From the sequence record OZ346222.1: a stretch of 64,000 nt of DNA; one strand, given 5' to 3'. A program made the position numbers and the translations under genes. This DNA comes from a phage. Positions within the stretch are counted from its first letter, which is position 1, and each line of letters opens with the position of its first letter. The notes under the pieces were generated by a model. The model was not told where the DNA came from and did no database searches. It was given only the letters and a program-made list of their open reading frames with translations. Positions 43-61,281 of the stretch are shown here, one piece after another.

Positions 43-729
43 ATGGCAGAGATTAAGTCGGATGTTAACCACATCCACACTCTGCCAGATTTTGTTCAGG
101 GAGGTCTTGACTACCTACCTGGAGATTTTCTGGCTGAGAAGGTTAATTTAGTCACATTCTTAACCGTATACCTTAAAAGGTTGGAGGATGTTGATAAGAT
201 GCTGGTAGGTTTGGCTGAAGGAAGATTGCTTAACAATGCCAGCGGAAGATACCTTGACGAAGTTGGTAATCAACTTGGTATTCTTAGGAATGGACTTTCA
301 GATGCTGATTTTCGTGCCACACTAATTATTCAGCAGGCCGCAGCATCAAGGGGCGGGACTCGCGAAGATGTCATCTCCACCTTGCGACAATTGTTCGGAA
401 GAGACAATTTCGATACGTGGAAAGGAGACAACTTCAGGTTTGACATAAATATTAGAAAAACTTGCTTTGACATATTGCAGTCTATCGATCAGATCTTAGA
501 TATGCTACCATTGCCTTGTCATTTGCGTCTTACAGAATCGCAAGGGCAAGCTTTTGGTTTTGAAGGGGACTCTACAGCTCTGGGCTTCGGATCAGTGTGG
601 GAAGAAAACCAATTCGGAGTTGGTGGGCTGGCTACTTTGCTATATGTTCCTGACGTAAGACCTGATTGGGACACCACAACCATTTATTGTGAAAGTATTA
701 CAGTAAACGCAACTAGACAGGAGGGTTAA
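43..729 (+). CDS. hypothetical virion protein (possible baseplate/tail component)
   Basis: 228-aa ORF at head of rightward structural gene block; stop overlaps start of next gene (TAATG at 727-731); no diagnostic motif recognised. Confidence 0.45.
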   Translation: MAEIKSDVNHIHTLPDFVQGGLDYLPGDFLAEKVNLVTFLTVYLKRLEDVDKMLVGLAEGRLLNNASGRYLDEVGNQLGILRNGLSDADFRATLIIQQAAASRGGTREDVISTLRQLFGRDNFDTWKGDNFRFDINIRKTCFDILQSIDQILDMLPLPCHLRLTESQGQAFGFEGDSTALGFGSVWEENQFGVGGLATLLYVPDVRPDWDTTTIYCESITVNATRQEG

Positions 730-2813: not shown

Positions 2814-3854
2814 ATGTCAAAACCTAGTTTTCCATTAGAGATTTGGGCAGAGGAGGATCAGGTTCTGCCTAACACCCACAGACAGAACAGGCTACGCCCG
2901 ATTGATGATTTGTGGAGAAAAGGTTGGGATCTTGGTCAAAAGCCCTCATGTGAAGAACTTAACTATATTTTCAATATGCTCGGGACTTGGGCAAAATACA
3001 TCGCTGACGAGCAGATCCCCGCTCAAGAAGGCCGTTATCTGGTACGTGATAATAACTTGAGTGATCTTTTGAACATTCCTGTTGCCCGTAGAAACCTTGG
3101 GATTATTACTAAGGAAGAGGCAGACGCCAGGTATGTAAAAGTTACAGGTGATACAATGACAGGCCCATTGGGTTTGCAACGTATCAACTTTAAAGCTGCC
3201 GAGTCAGATAAGGCTTGGATAGAGACAACTATTGGCCCAGATAAGACAACTCTCGACTTTGGGTTAAGTGATAATACCGGGTCGTTTGATGATGGTGGTA
3301 CATCTACAGTGGATGCGTTCCGTTGGAGATTCCAGCCAACTCAGCCGGATATTAATCCAGAGTTCACTTTGATGTACCTTAACGCGATCACGGCTAACCG
3401 TGCGCTGTTGAAAGTGGTAGGCAATGTTGAAGTTGTCGATAACATGAGGTGCAATAACCTTACTATCAGCAATACAGCGACATTCACCAACTGTAATGTG
3501 GCTAGTCAGTTGACGGCTGGGTCAGTGTATGTTAATGGTGGTGCAAGTTGTGACAGTATGGTTGTAAGAAGCCAGCACTGTGTTGTCGGTAACAGAAATG
3601 TGGTTCGCTCTGTGAACGGAGTGACGGCTAACGGTAACGGTGATGTAACGATCACTATCCCGCAGACAGGTGTGCAAGACATCAGAATCGGTGCAAGACT
3701 TGTGGACGGAGTTTCTGAATCTCCAATCCGCAACGGCTACGTTGTCACAGGCTGGCATTTCGGTGACAAAAAAGAGATGCGTGGTTCAACCTACTGGGCA
3801 GGACCTTTACAAAAACTTGTAAATGGTCAATGGATCACTGTTAATTATGCATAG
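2814..3854 (+). CDS. tail fiber protein (paralog A)
   Basis: 346 aa; GDTMTGPL tail-fibre motif, LNAITANRA, NRNVVRSVNG..NG.VTI repeats, C-terminus QKLVNGQWITVNYA shared with the 4866..5912 paralog; RBS AGGAGA upstream. Confidence 0.7.
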   Translation: MSKPSFPLEIWAEEDQVLPNTHRQNRLRPIDDLWRKGWDLGQKPSCEELNYIFNMLGTWAKYIADEQIPAQEGRYLVRDNNLSDLLNIPVARRNLGIITKEEADARYVKVTGDTMTGPLGLQRINFKAAESDKAWIETTIGPDKTTLDFGLSDNTGSFDDGGTSTVDAFRWRFQPTQPDINPEFTLMYLNAITANRALLKVVGNVEVVDNMRCNNLTISNTATFTNCNVASQLTAGSVYVNGGASCDSMVVRSQHCVVGNRNVVRSVNGVTANGNGDVTITIPQTGVQDIRIGARLVDGVSESPIRNGYVVTGWHFGDKKEMRGSTYWAGPLQKLVNGQWITVNYA

Positions 3855-36053: not shown

Positions 36054-38483
36054 ATGAGTATGTGGTCTTTCGATTTTGAGTCATCCGGTTTGCTGGAAGA
36101 CCCAGATCTTTATTATCACTGCGGTCTGTTTAAAGAGCTGAATAAGAACCGTTTTATGCTGTTCCTTCCTCTAAATGACCGCACACACTACTCCGAGGAG
36201 GATATAGAAAAGGCTAAGAACTTCATTCTGTCAAAGAAAACTCTTTATAAAGATTTTGAAGTTCGCATAGCAGATTTTTCGGAGTTGGAAGGTTGGCTTA
36301 CAGGCAATTCTGACTGGTCACCAACAGCTTTGAACTGCCATAACTGCTACAGTTATGACTTTATGCTAATGGAAAGATTATCCGGTATTCATTTTGATAT
36401 GTTCCGTGATCCTAAATGCATGGGGACTATCAACGACCACCAGGTTAACCTGTTTGATACGTTGGCTATGAGCCGAATCTTGTGGCCTGATCGCCCTTTA
36501 CCAAAAGGTTGTCCGGACGCTGTATTCAACCCGGTTACTAAGAAAATGCAACCTGTTGGTCCTCACGGCCTTATGGCATGGGGCTACGCCCTTGGTAACC
36601 AGAAAGTTCAAATTGATGACTGGCGCGATCTTCCGTTGTGGAAGTATGTGGATCGTGTATTCGAGGACGTTATCATCCAGGAGCTGCTCTGGAAAGAGCT
36701 GGTAGCGGAATCAAAAGGTGTATTCTACGGCAAATCTGACATGCAGAACTTTATGTACGATCCAGCCAAAGAGAAGCCGAAAGGGTTCAAGAAGATCACC
36801 TGGAAGAACGCATTACGTCGAGGCATGCTGCAGCACTTCCTGATGGAGCTGCAGGCCCGTCAGGGTGTATACTTCGACATAGATGGAGCTATTGCTTTAC
36901 GTGACCGTTGCGATGCGTGGATGAAAGAAATCGCTGATCGTGTTGAACCACAACTACCTTTAAAAGAGCTGTCAATGTCTCAGCGGCCCAAGTTCCCTGA
37001 AAAGCCGTTTAACCAAGACGGGACAATCTCTAATAATGGTTGGAAATGGTTAAAAGATAAGCTTGGCTATCCTGTAGACATGAGTGCTTTAGAGTTCAAA
37101 GCCCCGCCTAAGCGAGCATTTACCTCTACAGGAGATGTCAGCAAGATGGGGATAAAATGGTGTGAAGAGATGGGCTGCAAAGACCCCGATAAGATGGCTG
37201 ATTTCTTGAGAGGCTATATTAAGGGCACCTCCACACCACAACCCTTACCTAAAGAGCTGATGGATCAGGCAATAAGTGATCTGCAGCAGAAGCGAATGCC
37301 TGACTGCAAGATACCTATGAAAATCAGCAATCAGGACGACATCAAGCGATACCTAATCAGTGCTGGTTGGCTCCCAACAATGTGGAGAACTAAAGATGTA
37401 ACTAAAGACAGCAAGAAGAAAGCTTTACCTGATGCAGATGTTGATGCACGAGTATATGCATATATGGACGAGCTTTTGGAGTCAGAGTATTGTGACCTAA
37501 TTATCAACTTCTGGAACAAAACTGATGCTAAGTTCCAGACAACCGTGCACAAGTTCCGAAGCTTTCCTAACTCCGAAAGGATTAAAAAGGAAGTATTCGG
37601 GAAAATACGTAGAAAAGCCAGGGCACTTATTACTTCTCCGCAACTGAAAGATACGTTTGGACACCTATGCCCAAATCTTGAAAAATTGAACGGAGAGATG
37701 GCTAAAGATATCGTCTTGTGGTTATCATTGCGAAACCGCAGATCGGTCCTTGATCCAATCAAGGAGGATAAGGTTGATACTGGTCTTCTTAATCACCCAC
37801 GTTTGAAGATTGACCATAAGCTTCCTGCTAAAAGCTCTGGATTAACAAACACTTCCAGACAGAAACACAGTATTTGTGCAAACATGCCTAAACCATCTCC
37901 TAAAGTGGTTATGGGTAAAGAGATGCGTAGTCTGTGGGGTGTTCCTCCGGGATACTTTGAGATCGGTATTGACGGGTCCAACTTAGAGCAGCTTATCGGG
38001 GCTTGGGGTGCCTTTGAGTTCGACAACGGCCTGTATTATGATGTTGTAAGTAACGGAGACGCACACCAAAACAATGCTGAGGCATATACAAAAGTGGCAG
38101 GCAGAGAGGTGTCCCGTAACGACGGTAAACCTATCACGTATGGGGTTATGTACGGGGCACAAAAAGATAAAGTTGCAGATATGTTGGACATCTCCCCAGA
38201 GTTGGGACAAAGGGTAATCGATGCACTCTGGGATGCCAACCCAGGTCTTAAGGGGCGCAAAGAGGATCTGGAGAAATTCTGGGAAGCAACAGGTAAGAAG
38301 TTTATCTACTCTTTTGATGGTCATGCTATCTGGACCCGATCTAAACACTCTTTACTTAATGCATACCAACAAAATGGCGGTGCATCGTTGTGTGACTTAG
38401 TTGGAATACTCATGCACCACCAGATGGTGAAGCGTGGGTGGTACGATGAAGGTGTTCGTCGTATTATTTATTACCATAAATAA
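36054..38483 (+). CDS. DNA polymerase, family A: exon 1 (3'-5' exonuclease + polymerase through motif B)
   Basis: 809-aa ORF; Exo I-like FDFESSG at N-terminus; motif A-like IGIDGSNLEQL; motif B-like KPITYGVMYGAQ; ORF terminates ...RRIIYYH-K-stop exactly where motif C (HDE) is expected. Confidence 0.7.
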   Translation: MSMWSFDFESSGLLEDPDLYYHCGLFKELNKNRFMLFLPLNDRTHYSEEDIEKAKNFILSKKTLYKDFEVRIADFSELEGWLTGNSDWSPTALNCHNCYSYDFMLMERLSGIHFDMFRDPKCMGTINDHQVNLFDTLAMSRILWPDRPLPKGCPDAVFNPVTKKMQPVGPHGLMAWGYALGNQKVQIDDWRDLPLWKYVDRVFEDVIIQELLWKELVAESKGVFYGKSDMQNFMYDPAKEKPKGFKKITWKNALRRGMLQHFLMELQARQGVYFDIDGAIALRDRCDAWMKEIADRVEPQLPLKELSMSQRPKFPEKPFNQDGTISNNGWKWLKDKLGYPVDMSALEFKAPPKRAFTSTGDVSKMGIKWCEEMGCKDPDKMADFLRGYIKGTSTPQPLPKELMDQAISDLQQKRMPDCKIPMKISNQDDIKRYLISAGWLPTMWRTKDVTKDSKKKALPDADVDARVYAYMDELLESEYCDLIINFWNKTDAKFQTTVHKFRSFPNSERIKKEVFGKIRRKARALITSPQLKDTFGHLCPNLEKLNGEMAKDIVLWLSLRNRRSVLDPIKEDKVDTGLLNHPRLKIDHKLPAKSSGLTNTSRQKHSICANMPKPSPKVVMGKEMRSLWGVPPGYFEIGIDGSNLEQLIGAWGAFEFDNGLYYDVVSNGDAHQNNAEAYTKVAGREVSRNDGKPITYGVMYGAQKDKVADMLDISPELGQRVIDALWDANPGLKGRKEDLEKFWEATGKKFIYSFDGHAIWTRSKHSLLNAYQQNGGASLCDLVGILMHHQMVKRGWYDEGVRRIIYYHK

Positions 38484-38753
38484 CATTGTGGCTTCATAGA
38501 GTAATCTATGTCGAATAACCTCTTTAACTGCGGGAAGCCTAAACCTTATGGCAAGGTAATCCGCAACGAAGCGCTCAAAAGAGCGAACGCTCAGAGGCCA
38601 TTCCGAAAGGAAGTAGACCAGCAAGTGCGGTCGAAATGGGAGGATTCCTGTGGTTGCTTATCATAGGAATATGAGATGGTCCGATCCTACGTGAAAACGT
38701 ATGGCTATGCACGTAATGGTGCGGGGTAGCTTAACGACCTACCTGAACTATTG
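38478..38753 (+). other. putative group I intron (about 276 nt, no ORF) interrupting the DNA polymerase gene at motif C
   Basis: Exon 1 ends in U (CAU His codon); intervening sequence ends in G; downstream frame resumes with GAT GAG (DE) to complete HDE; intron-internal GUGG about 10 nt in can pair with exon-terminal CCAU (P1 with U.G at splice site); boundaries +/- 2 nt. Confidence 0.5.
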
Positions 38754-44341: not shown

Positions 44342-44767
44342 ATGATCTATGAAATGCCAAAACTGATTCGTGACGATGCCCAAAACGCTCACACCATTAT
44401 TATGGGCAAACGCATGGATATTATTTGTCATAAAGATTTCTGGGAAGGAAGTTACTTCACAGAGTATTTTGGTAAACTGGATAATGGTCTGCTGATCCAG
44501 TTCTACACCGATGCGGAAAACAACATTCCCTGGGAGTTCGAAACTGAAGATATTCATAAACTTTTCACCTTCCTCGATATTAAGGTTAAGGCCAAGTTTG
44601 AAGAGGGTGAGTGCGACGATTGTGGATTTTATGAGGTAACAGATTTCTATCTTCCAAGTGGTAAGAACCTTTACTATGAAAGCCACTTCGGTAACTCAAA
44701 TATGCCACAGTGCTGGACTGAGTTTTTTGAAATTGTGGAAGAGGAGCTGGCATATCGTGATTATTGA
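44342..44767 (+). CDS. hypothetical protein
   Basis: 141 aa; RBS GGAG. Confidence 0.5.
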   Translation: MIYEMPKLIRDDAQNAHTIIMGKRMDIICHKDFWEGSYFTEYFGKLDNGLLIQFYTDAENNIPWEFETEDIHKLFTFLDIKVKAKFEEGECDDCGFYEVTDFYLPSGKNLYYESHFGNSNMPQCWTEFFEIVEEELAYRDY

Positions 44768-45215
44768 TACTGTAGAGGGAGATTTAATCTCCCTTTTTAA
44801 GAGCGGTGCTGGTCACCTGATCCACGGTTGTAACTGCTTCCACACAATGGGTAAGGGTGTAGCAAAACAGATTGCCCGTGAGTTCCCTCAAGCATTGGAA
44901 GCTGATAAAATGACTATGCACGGTTGCCTAAGTAAACTGGGCGCGTTCTCCCGCTGGGAGCACTTATCTCCGAGAGGTATTGTCTACGGAATAAATCTGT
45001 ATACTCAGTTCTACCCAGGGCCTAATGCTGAATATTTCTCAATACTGAAAGGCTTTGAGCGAGTCAATGAAGTATTTGAGGGGTCGATTTTACCATTCTA
45101 CATCCCTAAGATCGGGTGCGGCATAGGTGGTTTGAAGTGGGAACATGTAGAGGACATTATTAACCTTGCCACTTTTGATATAGATATTATCGTGGTGGAG
45201 TACAAAGAGTGTTGA
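44757..45215 (+). CDS. macro-domain protein (ADP-ribose binding / ADP-ribosyl hydrolase-like)
   Basis: GTG start about 10 nt after GAGGAG (track ORF from 44658 overlaps upstream gene); motifs GHLIHGCNCFHTMGKGVAKQI and IPKIGCGIGGL resemble the macro-domain phosphate-binding loops (aligned by eye). Confidence 0.5.
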   Translation: MIIDTVEGDLISLFKSGAGHLIHGCNCFHTMGKGVAKQIAREFPQALEADKMTMHGCLSKLGAFSRWEHLSPRGIVYGINLYTQFYPGPNAEYFSILKGFERVNEVFEGSILPFYIPKIGCGIGGLKWEHVEDIINLATFDIDIIVVEYKEC

Positions 45216-45240
45216 CAGCTATATTTTAAGATGGTATAGT
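45212..45240 (+). promoter_or_regulatory. sigma70-type promoter
   Basis: TTGACA-17 nt-TATAGT upstream of the 45270 gene. Confidence 0.5.
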
Positions 45241-45269
45241 CGCCACAACGATTAAGACAGAGGAGCACT

Positions 45270-45464
45270 ATGGAGACTAAAATCTTAATTCTAGCTGTGA
45301 TAGATACAACAGAAGGAGCCATGTTTGAATCTGCAGGAGGGTATTTCTACCTGCCCTATGGAAAAAGAACTTCCGAGCCGAGTAAAGATTCAATCCTTAA
45401 AGTGTTCCCGTGTGCTTTCTGGCTGGAGATCTTGGTAGAAGATTGCAGAGGACTAGGGAGATAA
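45270..45464 (+). CDS. small hypothetical protein
   Basis: 64 aa; RBS AGAGGAG. Confidence 0.5.
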   Translation: METKILILAVIDTTEGAMFESAGGYFYLPYGKRTSEPSKDSILKVFPCAFWLEILVEDCRGLGR

Positions 45465-45466
45465 TT

Positions 45467-45661
45467 ATGAGAAACAAGAAAGAGCTTTACTCTGGTGAGT
45501 GGATAAACGATCAACAGGTAGGAGAGGTAACCTGCTTCCGGTGCTTTACTAGGTACAATCTTAAAACTGCACCAAAAAGTGTTCCAAAGACTGACGGTTA
45601 TTACATAAAAGAACCTCATTGCCCAAAATGCAAATGCCGATTATACTGGAGTAACCTGTAA
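45467..45661 (+). CDS. small zinc-ribbon protein
   Basis: Start at ATG after AGGGAG; CFRCFTRY ... CPKCKC Cys pairs. Confidence 0.45.
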   Translation: MRNKKELYSGEWINDQQVGEVTCFRCFTRYNLKTAPKSVPKTDGYYIKEPHCPKCKCRLYWSNL

Positions 45662-46526: not shown

Positions 46527-46716
46527 GCTTAAATCTGCATGGAACATCGCTGTGGGGGACGAGATCCGCATCCCAGGTGGAAAGACCATTATGAAGATAT
46601 CTCGTATCGAGTACGAAGGTGATCGTGTATTTCATATCTTTGCAGAAGATGGTCGAGAAATTTATATACAGGCAGGCTCTCACATCTATATTCGTAAGAA
46701 AGGGGACGACAAATGA
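46519..46716 (+). CDS. small hypothetical protein
   Basis: Start at ATG with AAGGAGGG upstream; overlaps upstream gene end by 8 nt. Confidence 0.45.
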   Translation: MFKLKSAWNIAVGDEIRIPGGKTIMKISRIEYEGDRVFHIFAEDGREIYIQAGSHIYIRKKGDDK

Positions 46717-47042
46717 CAGAGATCATCATTTCAACTGCAGGGTATGTGTTCCTGACAATCATTGCACTGACCATTCTGGTGGTGGTATATGGAATTGTTA
46801 TTCTCCCTATTCTTGAGACAATTAGTTTGTGTCGGTGTTGGAGAAAGGCTTACGGTCCACAGCCGTGGAAGGACTGGCCCCACCTGGTGCACATAGCGTT
46901 CTCTTATGCTTATGATCACGCCAGCAGTGCATGCATAACCGGGTATCACGCCCACAACTGGAGCTGGGAAGGGTTGAGGAAATGGAATGTTACAAAGACC
47001 ATACCTCTGCGCATGTACAAACCTAAAAACAAAGACAGCTGA
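46713..47042 (+). CDS. membrane protein
   Basis: 109 aa; ATGA overlap; N-terminal hydrophobic span (YVFLTIIALTILVVVYGIVILPIL). Confidence 0.5.
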   Translation: MTEIIISTAGYVFLTIIALTILVVVYGIVILPILETISLCRCWRKAYGPQPWKDWPHLVHIAFSYAYDHASSACITGYHAHNWSWEGLRKWNVTKTIPLRMYKPKNKDS

Positions 47043-47355
47043 TACTTGAAAATCCCTGGCATATCAAGTGTAAGGAGGATTTCTAAAATGGATTTCCTCC
47101 TTTTGATATTTCACCGGGCCAGATATTTTAAAATTCTTAGAAAATCAGAAAATGGATCGAAAACTAAAATGGATTTTTCAAGACAGGCACGATAAGATGT
47201 GCTGCTCATTCTATCGTTCGCACCGTACTTTAAGTCACTATTCCAGATTTTTCCGCACATACTCTCACCCTTCTACCAGAACTTTCCCAGCTTACCTCTG
47301 ACCTTTTATAACAATAAGTCCATTATTATCAGAAAGTTTCGGCACATCTCTTTCG

Positions 47356-47550
47356 GTACTCGATCTGTTTTTCATTTCAAAGACCTGATTTTCTGAAAAT
47401 TTTTCTCGATAAATTTCTTAGTACTCGATCTGTTTTTCATTTCAAAGACCTGATTTTCTGAAAATTTTTCTCGATAAATTTCTTAGTACTCGATCTGTTT
47501 TTCGTTTTCTGAATCGGATTTTCTGGAAATCGTTCCAGCTCTCGACCTGA
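47356..47550. repeat. tandem direct repeat, 65-bp unit, about 3 copies (third degenerate)
   Basis: Unit GTACTCGATCTGTTTTTCATTTCAAAGACCTGATTTTCTGAAAATTTTTCTCGATAAATTTCTTA starts at about 47356, 47421 and 47486 in an ORF-poor AT-rich region; AAATGGAT and GATTTTCTG sub-motifs recur on both sides. Confidence 0.7.
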
Positions 47551-47744
47551 AATTTTTGGGGACGAAATCGATTTTTCGTTTTCAGAAATGGATTTTTAAA
47601 ATTTCTATATGGGAATATTTTATGGGATACTGTTTTATAGGAAATTGTTACGGAGGGTAATTAGCATGCTAATTAAATTTATTAAATGCGAGGAGTTCTC
47701 ATTTAGAATTTTGAATGATAATCATTCTCGTTTGCAGAATAACG

Positions 47745-47767
47745 GGCAGGCCCGGTGATTGTCTCCC
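47745..47767. repeat. conserved 23-nt GC-rich motif, copy A (GGCAGGCCCGGTGATTGTCTCCC)
   Basis: Near-identical copy in inverted orientation at about 57523..57547; related variant CCGGTGGTTGTCTCCCCC at about 47887. Confidence 0.55.
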
Positions 47768-48124
47768 GGCCCCTACTGCCCCGGCTTGTTATTATAGTAT
47801 CACACAGGACAAAGAAAGCAAGGATTTTTTGCATAAATTTTTAAATGATAATGATAACCGTTCTCATTTTATGCAGCGCCCATCCCCGGTGGTTGTCTCC
47901 CCCGTCACCGGTGCCTGCCGTCCTTTCGATAGGTATATCGTGCCACCTGGCGGGGCCGCTGTCAACACTTTTCAAAAAATTTTTCTAACCTGATGCGCTA
48001 ACCGCTGCAACCTGGCGGGGTCAGCCTGGCAGGACCTAACTGACCGGGTAGGAGAGAATGAAGGCTTGTAAACCTGGTGGGCCTATGCTACAGGATAGGT
48101 AACAATTGAAGAGGAGGTACAAAA

Positions 48125-48292
48125 ATGAAAGGTAATATGATCCCCCTAGAAAATGTAGCTATTAATGACGCTGAGGCTATCGCCCTGGTTGAAAAGGCTA
48201 TGGCGGGAGCGTTGGAACATAAAGAAGAGTACGAAAAATGGTGGTTAACCTGGCGGGGGCGGCAGGTGGATTCTATCATAAAAATAATTTAA
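48125..48292 (+). CDS. small hypothetical protein (about 55 aa)
   Basis: ATG 5 nt after strong RBS GAAGAGGAGG; below track cutoff; coordinates hand-counted. Confidence 0.4.
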   Translation: MKGNMIPLENVAINDAEAIALVEKAMAGALEHKEEYEKWWLTWRGRQVDSIIKII

Positions 48293-48301
48293 AATAGTCG
48301 T

Positions 48302-48329
48302 TGACAACAAGGTTAATCATGGTATTATT
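48302..48329 (+). promoter_or_regulatory. sigma70-type promoter
   Basis: TTGACA-16 nt-TATTAT upstream of the 48379 gene. Confidence 0.5.
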
Positions 48330-48378
48330 ACCCTACAAGGTGAACAACACCGCACTAACCAGTAAAGAGGATAAATTT

Positions 48379-48576
48379 ATGAACGCATACGGGATCAAAG
48401 TACGTCGCAACACTCGCCAGGTGGTCACCAATCAAGTGATTTGCCGGGTGGATGTAACCATCAACAACGGGCAAGGCCTTTATAAATTTCGTCGCGGTCA
48501 TAGCTATACCCTGCAACAGCTTAATCGTTGCGCCCTGACAAAAGGTCAGATCAACCATTGGTTTAATAAAAAATAA
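48379..48576 (+). CDS. small basic protein
   Basis: Start at ATG after AAAGAGGA (track ORF from 48301 would cover the promoter); Arg/Lys-rich. Confidence 0.5.
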   Translation: MNAYGIKVRRNTRQVVTNQVICRVDVTINNGQGLYKFRRGHSYTLQQLNRCALTKGQINHWFNKK

Positions 48577-55132: not shown

Positions 55133-55187
55133 ACCTGGCGGGGCCGAAAAGGCCCCCAATTATGAAAATAAAGAGAGGCAAATCATC

Positions 55188-57437: not shown

Positions 57438-57522
57438 ATAAAAAGTGTTTTGGTACTGATTTTGGGGTTGACTTGTTCGGCCCCTTTTGCTATTCTTATT
57501 AAACGGGCGGCACTTGGGAACA

Positions 57523-57547
57523 GGGGGAGACAATCACCAGGCCTGCC
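57523..57547. repeat. conserved 23-nt GC-rich motif, copy B (inverted relative to copy A at about 47745)
   Basis: GGGGGAGACAATCACCAGGCCTGCC is the reverse complement of GGCAGGCC(C/T)GGTGATTGTCTCCC at about 47745. Confidence 0.55.
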
Positions 57548-57572
57548 TGTCATATAAGAACTATAAAAACCG

Positions 57573-57601
57573 TTGACATCTGCCAGGGGGTGGGGTAACA
57601 T
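57573..57601 (+). promoter_or_regulatory. sigma70-type promoter
   Basis: TTGACA-17 nt-TAACAT, then hairpin GGGCA...TGCCC, CA-rich spacer CACACAACAACC, RBS. Confidence 0.5.
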
Positions 57602-58860: not shown

Positions 58861-59299
58861 TCTGCTCTTCCCCCTACCATAAACGGCCCTACCTGGCAAG
58901 TGGAATAATTGACGAGCCATCAATCCCACACACTGTACAAATATACATGTAAAATAACTATTGCATAACCTTTCATTGTGTGGTAGCGGTGCTATTTTTT
59001 ACCTGTTTTCCTTCCAAAATTGCACGTAATGCAGCTATTGCACAAAATTTAACCTGATGCACATCTCCAATATCCTGTCAACAACTAAAAATCTTTATAA
59101 GTCATACACTTACACAGCATCGAAAGCGTGTTCTACGCGAAAAATCGAGTATAACTATAGCCGCCAGATCTCAGAATTCACGTACGCACGCCATTCTATA
59201 GCCTGCAAAGTATTTATTCCAACCACAGAATAACGGAATAGTCAATACCTGAATAAAATAATTATTCGTTTAAACTGCATAACATAAATCAGCTCAGGT

Positions 59300-60830
59300 G
59301 TCAACATTTTTCGTAAACAGTCTGAAATTGTCACTGTGAGTTATCATAAACAGAGAAATCTTTAGTCGTATAATGTTTACTGTACGTTACTATACTGACT
59401 GGAATCATTAGATGACTAATAGAAAGATAAGAAATAATTAACAATACAATTATTTTACCTGTAACAATAAGACAACTATGCAAACGAATGGCATGGCGCG
59501 ACGGAGTCGCGACATAATATAAAAGCAGTAACCATCACCCCCGTGATGGTTTGTCTGCAATCTATTAATCAGATCATAGTTGCCTTGTATTCAGTTAATC
59601 ATGACATAATAAGCAAGGCAACTATAGATCTGCTAATAGTTGCCCTGCTTTTATATTATGTCATATATTATTAACTTGTTAATTGTTAACTTGCTAATTG
59701 TTTTCATGCAAACGAATGTCATGGCTTATCCTATCTGTGTAAACAGTTAAGGTGTAAACTATCCAGGCGTAAACAGTCTATGCGGGAACAATCTATACGT
59801 GAACAGTGAAACATGAAATAATAACAGTCGTTATTGTGTCGAAAGTGTATAAGGTGTCAGACAAGTTTTTCTCCTCTTTGTCAAGTGCTGCATGAAAAAT
59901 TTACAAGCTTGTATGGTAGCATTTTTGCGGCCCTGTTTACATTCAGCGATGTATGTATAATCCTTGTTGTGTGGGCGTTTAGACGTCTAGACGGTCAGAA
60001 GTCTGCAGGTTAATACCTAATCTATCGGCTGCTAACTATATCCCACACAAATAGTAAGAAATATAATTGTTATGTGCGTAAACAGTAACTCATGTTATCA
60101 ATCCCTGTATGTATCGCCAGTGGTGCGCATAATGGGTATTATGTTAAATTGCCCGTAATGATAACTATTCTCACAATGATAGGTATTCTCATTCACTCCC
60201 ACAAGATAGGTTGCAAATGTTGTGCCACTGTGTGAACGGCCTAACCTATTAATTTGCCTCACTGCCTCGATATTTGAGAATTGTTATAAGAATGAGAAGT
60301 ATTCCCATTTCGTCCGCCTGGCAGCACTCCAGTCGCTACCGCTCATGACAGGGCAGAACTAGACCCTCTTCAGATATTTCTGGCTGACTCTTCAGGTCTG
60401 TGTGGGAAAAGCCAACCTCTCCGGCGGCGGGGAGGGGGTCAATTAAAAAAAATTACGTGGTGCATGAAGCGCTCTTCAGGTAAGGCATGTGTTATGGGAT
60501 GAAACCCTCTTCAGGCAATGATATTTGTGGGTGTGATATTTGCTGGAAAGCCAGATATGACGGGACTCCTGGCGGGGCAGGGGTAGTACAGACAGGGAAA
60601 ATATGGGGGATGTAGTTGGGGAAATTGATCAGACAGGTAGAGTATGGAATATGTTACAAGTATGTTAAATAGGGAGGATGAATATCTGCAGGATTTGTGT
60701 GTAAAATCAAAGACTTAAGTGGTGTTGTGGTATTTTCTATAAATAATTCAAGTTTAATAGGTAATATTTGTCTCTATCCACTTTGTGTGGTAAACAGATT
60801 CAGATGAAATTGGTTTACAAGTGTATACAT
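59300..60830. repeat. iteron-like dispersed repeats (GTAAACAG family) and palindromes in an ORF-free region
   Basis: At least 7 copies of (G)TAAACAG in both orientations, five within about 90 bp near 59.74-59.83 kb; 12-bp inverted repeat ATAGTTGCCTTG/CAAGGCAACTAT near 59.58-59.62 kb; TGCAAACGAATG(G/T)CATGGC twice. Confidence 0.55.
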
Positions 60831-61281
60831 AATATACAAATTAAAGATACAAGAAACCCCCCTCCCCCTTCGGCTACCATTCACCTTTTCCTCTGACTGG
60901 TACTTAAACACTTATTCAGACTCTTCAGGTTATCACCCATATATCATATGGCAGTGACTGGTGTCCTCCGGCCCCTCTTTCGTCACCCGTCCGCTTCGCC
61001 ATGCTAATGCCATAGCCAATGGTTCGGTTGTTCACTCTGTTCACTCAGGTGTATCTCCATACCCCTTCAAACCGAAGAGAACAGAAAACCCGAATTACTC
61101 GGTAAAAGAAAAGAGAAGAACTTAATTTTATCAGGATAGGCAAGAATGTCAAGGCATGACTGCTCACTAAACAAGCAAACAGTCATGTGTGGAAGGTAAG
61201 TGATTGTGGTGGTGGGAAATTTAGTTGAAAGATGTGTTATAGGTGCGCTTCCAGCACTTTGGCCGGGCAGCTAATTGTGTG

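Follow-up and report, generated by a model that had tools for sequence, protein, structure and literature searches.

What function would keep about 1 kb of non-coding DNA better conserved than anything else for kilobases on either side in the genome of an rV5-like phage? The stretch in question occupies positions 47050-48120 of the window, the 64,000 nucleotides of sequence record OZ346222.1 that were analysed here, and the source phage is a Vequintavirus that infects E. coli. With a 7.5-kb query, blastn alignment outside the genus was confined to 47666-47830 (71-88% identity), and the matches came from Phapecoctavirus, Justusliebigvirus, Mydovirus, Seunavirus, Certrevirus, Henunavirus and Vibrio phages, other subfamilies included. 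Within the genus, an alignment of five Vequintavirus genomes showed positions 47470-47985 to be nearly invariant, while the adjoining DNA varies. The flanking proteins are not common to other genera, and a Pfam search of ten of them returned DUF7170 as the sole match; likewise, the ORFs that neighbour the region in other genera are neither conserved between those genera nor present in the window. A host origin of the GC-rich part was rejected, as no blastn match was found in 5,426 E. coli genomes. Also rejected was the equation of the region with the box marked “non-coding” in the rV5 genome paper (rV5 104013-106618), since that box maps to approximately 59-61.3 kb of the window. The features are as follows, with a strand given where one applies.

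46713-47042, plus strand: left border, where the dense small-gene block ends with a gene of 109 aa (from the ORF list; no Pfam match)
47080-47180: three solitary AAAATGGAT(T/C) half-sites (47086, ~47151 and 47167) and an inverted GAAAATC copy (sequence)
47185-47350: variable spacer with 1-nt indels, where conservation in the genus is lowest (five-genome Vequintavirus alignment); ORF 47199-47396 lies here
47356-47600: iteron array of ~65-bp units (TRF, repeat search, five-genome Vequintavirus alignment)
47600-47710: AT-rich block, nearly invariant in the genus (sequence and alignment)
47711-47735: Fur-box-like site 1, TTGAATGATAATCATTCTC (15/19; an overlapping 19-mer, 14/19)
47731-47789, minus strand: A1, a putative GC-rich promoter-proximal RNA element with core GAGACAAUCACCGGGCCUGCCCG (covariance model 51.7 bits, E 5e-11; cross-subfamily blastn)
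47791-47821, minus strand: predicted A1 promoter, -10 TATAAT (47796-47791), weak -35 TTGCTT (47821-47816), 19-nt spacing (sequence)
47847-47865: Fur-box-like site 2, GATAATGATAACCGTTCTC (16/19 to the consensus)
47875-47930, minus strand: A2, the second element copy, GGGGGAGACAACCACCGGGGAUGGGCG, which contains the hairpin CCGGTG-N14-CACCGG (model hit 47875-47915, 18.2 bits, E 0.037)
47937-47965, minus strand: predicted A2 promoter, -35 TTGACA (47965-47960), 17-nt spacer GCGGCCCCGCCAGGTGG, -10 CACGAT (47942-47937) (lineage comparison)
47966-47990: A/T tract upstream of the A2 promoter, variable in length within the genus (five-genome alignment)
48005-48095: GC-rich block with ACCTGGCGGGG at 48010 and the hairpin GGTCAG..CTGACC (sequence and alignment)
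48125-48292, plus strand: right border, where the promoter-rich block begins with a gene of 55 aa that has a strong ribosome-binding site and holds ACCTGGCGGGG at 48248
57470-57560, plus strand: A3, a third element copy outside the region, ..GGGGGAGACAAUCACCAGGCCUGCCUGUC (model 18.7 bits, E 0.028)

As the initial annotation had it, the region separates a dense small-gene block on the left from a promoter-rich block on the right and holds no credible gene. A coding function for small proteins, as annotated in rV5 (gp193 and gp194) and many relatives, is very hard to credit, even though ORFs of 65 and 92 codons are present and are annotated as hypothetical proteins in those relatives. Specifically, ORF 47199-47396 falls where conservation is lowest and indels break its frame, and it runs into a duplication private to the source phage, while ORF 47715-47993 overlies DNA that is nearly invariant in the genus and conserved across other genera without such an ORF. 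Neither has a ribosome-binding site, and some curated records leave the region empty.

Packaging had also been raised initially, and a pac/cos or terminal-repeat region would agree with the repeat-rich, ORF-free character of the DNA and with the several public assemblies that break inside or beside it. Such breaks are, however, expected at any repeat, and the direct terminal repeats measured in relatives (KPP-1, 116316-116829, 514 bp; BME3, record positions 1-342) belong to a different ORF-free region, the convergent one at window ~59-61 kb, 8-12 kb away. Because the physical ends of relatives map there, a packaging role is not supported, and we consider it highly improbable. Features labelled “repeat_region” in phages anhysbys and isim were also considered as termini, and rejected as short repeats.

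At the left edge, solitary AAATGGAT half-sites precede the iteron array, and other genera carry the same motif at the same edge as a AAATGGTTTTC triplet. The recurrence of sub-motifs noted initially is upheld for exact copies of AAATGGATTT, of which there are three (47086, 47167 and 47586), all within the region and with no further copy in 64 kb, but not at one mismatch, where the window-wide count is not above chance. In the array, TRF detected a period of 65 (2.3 copies, 98% matches, 47356-47507), in agreement with the roughly three tandem 65-bp copies first described: units 47356-47420 and 47421-47485 are identical, the third (47486-47550) matches at 68%, and a degenerate fourth continues up to ~47600. 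Every unit carries CTCGATC..TTTTTC..(C/T)(T/G)GATTTTCTG. One of the two identical units is missing from four other Vequintaviruses, and the unit that brings the count to four is a recent perfect duplicate, private to the source phage. Like an iteron-type origin, the region thus has a direct-repeat array of conserved number and spacing (four units here, three in relatives): three direct repeats spaced 63-84 bp apart occupy the same place in most of ten lineages examined, with phiWec186 showing two copies, 139 bp apart. Across lineages the iteron sequences fall into four unrelated classes, as would be expected for a co-evolving phage protein. The AT-rich block that follows the array contains an 18-bp perfect palindrome, TAATTAGCATGCTAATTA, at 47658-47675 and a degenerate Fur-like site at 47684-47704.

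The GC-rich repeat ACCTGGCGGGG has four exact copies in 64 kb (47945, 48010, 48248 and 55133) and, at one mismatch, six against 0.49 expected, a count reached in none of 100 shuffles. At least three copies had been placed at 47.7-48.1 kb; there are two exact ones and a variant, ACCTGGTGGG, at 48072, and the further downstream copies were found at 48248 and 55133. The AACCTGGCGGGG copies are of mixed kinds, namely promoter spacer, within-gene and terminator arm: the A2 promoter spacer is the reverse of the copy at 47945, the copy at 55133 is the 5' arm of GGGGCC-GAAAA-GGCCCC, and the variant at 48072 is the spacer of a weak plus-strand TTGTAA-17-TACAGG. In phage Gotham, block 48005-48095 has lost two stretches, which suggests that this block is partly dispensable.

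Two tandem minus-strand modules follow the AT-rich block, each with the order sigma-70 promoter, ~55-nt GC-rich element and Fur-box-like site. Of 15 lineages, 12-15 have the -35 and -10 hexamers at constant offsets (+54..59 and +204..227), the spacers varying freely; the A1-type -10, for example, lies at +54..59 from the anchor in 12 of the 15, and the homologous promoter of phage A73 reads TTGACA-ACGGCCCCGCCAGGGGC-CATACT. The source phage has weaker promoters than other genera, as seen in the A2 -10 (CACGAT) and the 19-nt spacing of A1. Within the A element, the core GAGACAAYCACCGG..CUGCC is invariant. A covariance model built from 17 non-Vequintavirus sequences, with Vequintavirus left out, finds A1, A2 and A3 in the window, each 3' of a promoter and in the same sense, and the A2 copy is also supported by repeats D6/D7. 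A3 (promoter TTGACT-17-TATTCT) has the same sense relative to its promoter as A1 and A2, and it lies alone between two plus-strand genes, 3' of its own promoter and 5' of the next gene. No iterons accompany it, so the A element needs no origin context. In Mydovirus contigs, an extra copy situated ~7 kb away from the main copy repeats the order promoter, A, Fur-like box. Conserved sigma-70 hexamers therefore stand 5' of A1, A2, A3 and the extra Mydovirus copy, as would be expected of small-RNA genes with their own promoters. In other genera, a further structured element, B, comprising a hairpin and a possible H-type pseudoknot (CCCC/GGGG replaced by CCAA/UUGG), lies behind its own promoter in the same unit. 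The initial annotation mentions neither the minus-strand promoters, nor the Fur-box-like sites, nor the third copy at 57.5 kb.

These results strengthen two early suggestions, a regulatory hub and a structured small RNA, insofar as two positionally conserved minus-strand promoters each precede a conserved GC-rich element and the model finds three copies; the hairpin CCGGTG-N14-CACCGG is also present as described, at 47886-47913. A would represent a new family of RNAs, present three times in each genome and conserved from E. coli phages to Vibrio phages. In Rfam 15, the window region had no match at the gathering score and chance-level matches only at E up to 10, and six related loci had none at E up to 1. 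The structure of the RNA is weakly supported. Comparison of structure and covariance among related phages favours it in one respect, as 85% of cells in the terminal helix are paired, whereas sliding the helix gives 27-55%, and 19 G-U cells would be A-C mismatches on the opposite strand; in the other respects it does not, as covariation in the helix equals that of shuffles, RNAalifold gives A no consensus fold on either strand, and the folding energies on either strand are within 1-2 sd of shuffled sequence (z-scores -0.9 to -1.9).

It is possible, if somewhat doubtful, that the region takes no part in replication and instead serves as a locus of small-RNA production and transcription control. 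In such a locus, A1, A2 and A3 would form a new promoter-proximal RNA family. Their action might be in cis, either on the transcribing polymerase or as a 5' leader, by antitermination of the put type or by protection of the transcript; alternatively, the invariant GAGACAAYCACC might let them act in trans. The iterons would then serve as operators for a phage regulator of transcription, which would set the timing of the early-to-middle switch, with the Fur sites stopping or releasing transcripts according to iron status. The iteron-free A3 behind its own promoter, the extra Mydovirus copy, the structured element B and the position of the region between two differently organised early gene blocks all speak for such a locus. 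It is opposed by the lack of any minus-strand gene downstream of A1 or A2 that a leader or antiterminator could serve, by the weak structure statistics and by the missing terminator, no GC hairpin with a U-run following A1, A2 or A3 to delimit a discrete small RNA. A target was also not found, the blastn search with A for complementary sites in E. coli genomes being uninformative at that database size. A close parallel is with putL and putR of phage HK022, which are promoter-proximal, cis-acting structured RNA elements; A resembles them as a putative short structured RNA encoded right after a host-type promoter in several copies per genome, and differs in that A1 and A2 lack downstream genes.

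The third component of each module resembles the operator of the host iron repressor. Sites were scored against the 19-bp Fur consensus GATAATGATAATCATTATC and its Vibrio form AATGATAATAATTATCATT, an operator being recognised by a match to the 19-bp consensus or by at least three NAT(A/T)AT hexamers. The predicted sites match the consensus at 15/19 (47711) and 16/19 (47847), reach 16/19 to the Vibrio form, and form NAT(A/T)AT-like hexamer arrays within the 50-80% identity range of natural enterobacterial and Vibrio boxes. Site 2 is the only site in 64 kb with three or fewer mismatches to the consensus (0.02 expected). Site 1 holds the same position in the lineages examined, and almost all lineages scanned, one Vibrio phage among them, have one to five Fur-like sites clustered there. 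Across lineages, GATAAT and GAGAAT hexamers are mixed without compensatory change, which fits a host factor with a conserved degenerate site. The same uncompensated asymmetries, together with the absence of a U-run on the 3' side, led to rejection of the palindromes as RNA hairpins or terminators. A Fur-repressed plus-strand promoter, TTGAAT-18-CAGAAT, driving a RyhB-like RNA was likewise rejected, as position 2 of its -10 is unconserved (CAGAAT, CTGAAT, CGGAAT, GGGAAT) and its spacing is broken in the extra Mydovirus copy. Whereas classical Fur operators cover the promoter, the candidate sites here do not overlap the conserved -35 and -10; they lie ~50 nt downstream of the predicted minus-strand start sites and adjoin the iterons.

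Taken as a whole, these sequence features are tentatively best explained by a Fur-gated, transcription-activated origin or control hub of rV5-like phages. The “second origin” first proposed as one option is plausible and is the reading we prefer, based on iterons that are lineage-specific in sequence and conserved in number and spacing. In outline, the iteron array and the solitary half-sites would be targets of a phage protein, and the host Fur repressor would occupy the Fur-box-like sites. Host RNA polymerase would start at the two minus-strand promoters and transcribe leftward, producing first the ~55-nt, G-rich and GC-rich element (A1, A2), whose 5' and 3' ends are able to pair, and then entering the Fur site, the AT-rich block and the iterons. 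We regard an early origin of replication as the likeliest function, one that this leftward transcription would activate or prime and that iron status would control through the occupancy of Fur. Transcription-dependent origins include T4 oriF and oriG, lambda ori and ColE1, and to these and P1 oriR the region is similar in its direct-repeat array of lineage-specific sequence, A/T tracts, GATC sites in the repeats, predicted promoter directed into the repeats and G-rich transcript. In contrast to iteron-type and transcription-activated origins, its units are ~65 bp rather than 17-22 bp, and it lacks DnaA boxes and an adjoining initiator gene: no TTATNCACA occurs in 46.9-48.3 kb, where the best candidate is the one-mismatch TTATGCAAA, and the neighbouring ORFs have either no family match or DUF7170 only, with no recognisable initiator among them. 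To our knowledge, Fur sites have not been described as a component of an origin. Phage T5 carries the same palindromes in a region that is not considered to be its origin. The origin of phage ICP1 has been mapped by coverage; ICP1 has no comparable ORF-free region near it and no sequence match to the region described here. Literature searches on rV5-like phages returned nothing relevant on Fur boxes, origins or transcriptomes.

A different kind of early control is known in phage T5, whose Repeat Region 3 carries the injection-stop signal (Heusterspreute 1987; Wang 2005; Davison, bioRxiv 10.1101/866236). It is unlikely, in our estimation decidedly so, that the region is a counterpart of this signal, that is, a checkpoint ~8-12 kb from the first-entering genome end. 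Bound host proteins would hold up DNA entry or early transcription at this point, and the remaining genome would follow once drawn in by early proteins or by transcription running inward from the minus-strand promoters. Nevertheless, the likenesses are several. Both are large conserved untranslated regions near a genome end, bordering a block of small genes (pre-early ones in T5), and both contain a GC-rich hairpin. The palindromes AAATGAGAATCATTCTCATTT, with 14-16/19 to the Fur consensus, recur in T5 Repeat Region 3 (in several copies as AAATGAGAATCATT(A/C)TCATTT) and in its homologue in phage PK8, and repeated palindromes followed by a direct-repeat array occur in the same order from the terminus in T5, PK8 and rV5-like phages. 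The region lies ~8-9 kb from the 514-bp terminal repeat in KPP-1 and ~12 kb from the equivalent ORF-free region in the window, and the intervening genes are small, promoter-rich and oriented toward the end. Finally, Vequintavirinae and T5-like phages are both highly sensitive to daunorubicin, which blocks T5-like infection after first-step transfer.

The differences are nonetheless substantial. The region lacks the defining feature of its T5 equivalent, the pairs of DnaA boxes 3 bp apart in an IRD'-spacer-IRC' element, and T5 also has a LexA-box palindrome and 14-15-bp repeats in place of ~65-bp units; the minus-strand promoters with their A element are, conversely, peculiar to the rV5-like region, and there is no homology beyond the palindromes. 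T5 Repeat Region 3 sits at the inner edge of a 10-kb terminal repeat, whereas the region described here is not at a terminal-repeat boundary, relatives having short repeats (342-514 bp) 8-12 kb away. Moreover, terminal repeats have been measured in Mydovirus and Justusliebigvirus only, one report infers headful packaging for a Vequintavirus, and two-step entry has never been reported for the rV5-like group.

A broader, speculative and rather unlikely proposal is that a “host-factor landing pad”, which gates an early step by means of the host iron repressor, is common to rV5-like myoviruses and T5-like siphoviruses, whether by convergence or by lateral acquisition. The pad would consist of a Fur operator array adjoining a phage-specific repeat array, one early-gene block in from the genome end, and the step under control would be either the initial replication round or a staged entry of the genome like the first-step transfer of T5. 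The promoter-proximal G-rich RNAs A1, A2 and A3, a new family, would serve to read this gate in rV5-like phages. If this is true, palindromes E, G and I of T5 would be Fur boxes and palindrome D a LexA box.

The rV5-like phages (Vequintavirinae and Stephanstirmvirinae) are broad-host-range coliphages that are isolated very often and used in therapy cocktails. In the rV5 genome paper, skew analysis was tried and the origin was not found. The region described here, annotated in databases as hypothetical proteins, is the best candidate so far for a cis-element of rV5-like origin function or early regulation. If Fur does bind, a virulent phage would tie a core step of its infection to the iron status of its host, and the palindromes in the T5 injection-stop region would gain a testable identity.

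The ORF-free hub at window 47050-48120 lies within a segment (46900-48400) that matched 122 phage records by megablast, nearly all of them Vequintavirus (rV5-like), with phage EdH4 as the best match (92.8%). The relatives' records carry either two to six small "hypothetical proteins" or no annotation over this stretch, and the rV5 counterpart, at ~116.6-117.7 kb, is annotated as gp193 and gp194. The initial annotation had called the region non-coding, and an alignment of five Vequintaviruses bears this out: the least conserved part, 47185-47350, contains 1-nt indels, one of two identical 65-bp repeat units is private to this phage, and 47470-47985 is near-invariant, with substitutions that follow no codon-like pattern. 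Two stretches of the GC-rich block, 48033-48053 and 48079-48091, are absent by deletion from phage Gotham (L001), which makes this portion of the hub dispensable.

The sole segment alignable outside the genus is 47666-47830, with 70-88% identity to Phapecoctavirus, Justusliebigvirus, Mydovirus, Seunavirus, Certrevirus and Henunavirus in sensitive blastn searches with the region alone and with a 7.5-kb query. A reciprocal search from the GAP31 locus returned 366 records, adding unclassified relatives and two Vibrio phages, and the annotation beneath the cross-genus match is nearly always "none". The flanking proteins differ between lineages: GAP31_042 shares 34% identity with Mydo_053, and the window has no counterpart of these two or of the other hub neighbours. 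Since the flanking proteins are not common to the lineages while the non-coding DNA is conserved, the latter is far more constrained than its neighbours. When loci from 15 lineages were compared, all 15 possessed an ORF-free gap of ~1 kb with its parts in constant order.

Parts of the hub, in order along the window's plus strand (15-lineage comparison)
Part 1: triplet of AAATGG(A/T)TTT, first in order
Part 2: three direct repeats at a spacing of 63-84 bp (in phiWec186, two copies 139 bp apart)
Part 3: between one and five AATGAGAATCATTCTCATT-type palindromes
Part 4: element A, conserved and GC-rich
Part 5: sigma-70-like promoter, minus strand
Part 6: element B with its own minus-strand promoter, in every genus but Vequintavirus, in many cases with a small DUF7170-family ORF after it on the minus strand

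The 65-bp tandem repeat reported earlier is present (TRF period 65, 2.3 copies, 98% matches) and represents the common iteron array with one unit perfectly duplicated; two units are identical, a third is at 68% identity and a fourth is degenerate. Likewise, the sub-motifs AAATGGAT and GATTTTCTG are one half-site, (A/C/T)(T/G)GATTTTC, with one copy in each iteron unit and isolated copies at the left edge. Three exact copies of AAATGGATTT were also recovered, all of them within the region; the rest of the 64 kb contains none, and once a single mismatch is tolerated the count over the window does not exceed the chance level. Across lineages, the iteron units fall into four unrelated sequence classes.

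Iteron classes
Class 1: CTCGATCG..TTTTC..GATCGTATT, in Vequinta-, Seuna-, Mydo- and Certrevirus
Class 2: ACTTGAGGGGTTTTTC..AAATGGATTTTC, in Henunavirus and A73
Class 3: AAAATTATTTAAAGTTTTT.., in Stephanstirmvirinae
Class 4: a separate class, in Vibrio phages

Iteron number, spacing and position are constant despite these four classes, and a constant layout with changing sequence is the pattern that would be expected of sites for a co-evolving phage protein. In many Vequintavirus records, the alignment to the 7.5-kb query breaks within the iterons (window 47415-47422; query 3415-3422). Because the alignments break exactly inside it, the array apparently delimits either mosaic exchange or changes in copy number among members of the genus.

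The palindromes resemble binding sites for Fur. Those at 47711 and 47847 match the Fur consensus at 15/19 and 16/19 positions, respectively, and natural Fur boxes share 50-80% identity with it; the site at 47847 is the only one in 64 kb with three mismatches or fewer (0.02 expected). Against the Vibrio Fur consensus, AATGATAATAATTATCATT, the phage palindrome scores 16/19, and sites of at least 13/19 cluster at the homologous position in all lineages scanned except Vibrio phage 1.161.O. The palindromes mix GATAAT, GAGAAT and GATAAC hexamers with no compensating changes in the opposite arm, which argues for recognition of the DNA by a protein and against an RNA hairpin. That the palindromes stay constant between Vibrio and Escherichia phages, beside iterons that change completely, argues in turn that these are candidate sites for a host factor. 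A plus-strand promoter overlapped by a Fur box was considered and rejected, position 2 of its -10 hexamer not being conserved.

Minus-strand promoter hexamers, separated by 16-18-nt spacers, occur at fixed offsets from a common anchor. In 12 of 15 lineages the A promoter has its -10 at +54..59; a second promoter occurs at +204..227 in all B-carrying lineages and, in the window, at +200. Spacer sequence is free to vary, being GC-rich and often with CCWGG in enterobacterial phages and AT-rich in Vibrio phage 11895-B1. The window's second promoter reads TTGACA-GCGGCCCCGCCAGGTGG-CACGAT, with nearly the same spacer in the homologous promoter of phage A73, and GCGGCCCCGCCAGGTGG corresponds to the ACCTGGCGGGG copy at 47945 read in reverse. 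That GC-rich repeat, also singled out earlier, is indeed over-represented (four exact copies, or six if one mismatch is allowed, versus 0.49 expected), its contexts being a promoter spacer, a gene, a terminator arm and the partly dispensable GC-rich block. Both hairpins first described, one at 47886-47913 and a terminator-like one at 55133, were confirmed.

Element A was located in the window with a covariance model of 17 sequences, all from genera other than Vequintavirus.

Copies of element A in the window
A1: hub, minus strand, 51.7 bits, E 5e-11; minus-sense sequence CCGGGGCAGUAGGGGCCGGGAGACAAUCACCGGGCCUGCCCGUUAUUCUG; promoter with a perfect TATAAT, a poor -35 and 19-nt spacing
A2: hub, minus strand, 18.2 bits, E 0.037; driven by the counterpart of the other genera's B promoter
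A3: 57506-57551, plus strand, 18.7 bits, E 0.028; TTGACT-17-TATTCT directly upstream, sense relative to the promoter as in A1 and A2

Vequintavirus carries A as a tandem pair, with a Fur-like site after each member. The A3 locus (57470-57560, plus strand) sits between two early genes and is followed at 57573 by another promoter, TTGACA-TCTGCCAGGGGGTGGGG-TAACAT, whose spacer is again GC-rich with CCWGG. In two Mydovirus contigs A is present once more, ~7 kb away from the main copy and again in the order promoter, A, Fur-like box. That A may be transcribed is best supported by its consistent sense and by the promoter found at each copy; its structure is less well supported. A terminal helix between the 5' end and the conserved CCCGCUAU has 85% of cells paired, versus 27-55% with the partner slid, and, read from the opposite strand, the 19 G-U cells in this helix would become A-C mismatches. 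Covariation in this helix is not above shuffles, RNAalifold gave no consensus for A, and folding energies lie -0.9 to -1.9 sd from shuffles. No terminator was found after A, and searches returned no Rfam match and no homologue in E. coli genomes. A purely regulatory or small-RNA role for the hub is less likely than not, yet nearly as likely as a replication origin, because A3 would work without iterons.

Element B, a conserved element of ~100 nt, is found in all genera but Vequintavirus, and a small opposite-strand ORF lies just upstream of its promoter, in B's leftward unit.

Element B and its upstream ORF
B, minus sense: L004-L008, L012, L020-L022, L025 and L026 (e.g., L006:1676-1790)
ORF upstream of the B promoter: L005:1826-2011, L006:1817-2008, L021:1581-1847, L025:1430-1714

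The ORF belongs to DUF7170 in GAP31 and to a different 88-94-aa family in A73 and Justusliebigvirus, and is absent from the window. B carries an invariant GGAAGGUGGAUCGCCGGUAG, a hairpin of variable stem (ACCAGG/CCUGGU, GCCG/CGGC, AUAGCCG/CGGCUAU) and a possible H-type pseudoknot, CGCC-A-CCCC-AC-GGCG-AAAAGGC-GGGG, with CCAA/UUGG in place of CCCC/GGGG in two lineages; Rfam gave no match.

Packaging, also proposed initially, does not appear to be the hub's function, since published terminal repeats of Mydovirus KPP-1 (514-bp direct repeat, 116316-116829) and Justusliebigvirus BME3 (342 bp, at the record start) both map to the other, convergent ORF-free region; the KPP-1 hub is ~8-9 kb from its repeat. 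For one Vequintavirus, a single report inferred headful packaging from a cocktail assembly. In the window, this second and larger ORF-free region (58950-61280), where plus-strand genes meet minus-strand genes, corresponds to the grey box marked "non-coding" in the published rV5 genome (rV5 104013-106618, where two transcription units converge); that box is distinct from the hub. By analogy with KPP-1 and BME3, the terminal repeat is probably located here. Fur-like boxes also occur in the convergent region of BME3, KPP-1 and the window (60154 and 60283), the box at 60154, CGTAATGATAACTATTCTC, being identical to one of Vibrio phage 11895-B1. The window's region also has long palindromes rich in A and T, recurring copies of GTAAACAGT and CTCTTCAGG, and, at 60567, TCCTGGCGGGGCAGG. 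Elsewhere, ~900 bp at 44753-45653 are ~69% identical to RB49-like T-even phages (tk.4 phosphatase region), which suggests gene exchange between rV5-like and T4-like phages, and 38468-38703 is a group I intron (Rfam RF00028, 64.7 bits, E 4e-14).

A 41-nt blastn match led to the T5-like phage PK8 (L028) and thence to T5 Repeat Region 3 (L035, AY587007 9100-10600), a candidate injection-stop signal. There, TTTTTAAATGAGAATCATTATCATTTGC is the sequence shared by "direct repeat C" and palindromes E, G and I, scoring 14-16/19 to the Fur consensus, and palindrome D has the sequence of a LexA box, TACTGTATAAATATACAGTA; next come a GC hairpin and nine copies of "direct repeat D". Fur and LexA do not come up in the paper that analyses the region. 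In both groups, the order from the genome end is early genes, Fur-like palindromes and repeat array. In T5 there are, in addition, pairs of DnaA boxes, and the region borders a terminal repeat of 10 kb. High daunorubicin sensitivity is common to Vequintavirinae and T5-like phages, and the drug stalls T5-like infection after first-step transfer, a parallel that may serve as a lead, not as evidence. A T5-like entry checkpoint is an improbable reading of the hub.

What is firmly supported is a functional non-coding hub, composed of phage-specific iterons, Fur-consensus sites and two promoter-driven A copies read toward the iterons. The preferred mechanism, drawn entirely from this anatomy and held tentatively, is that the hub would act as an early replication origin, activated by transcription and gated by Fur.
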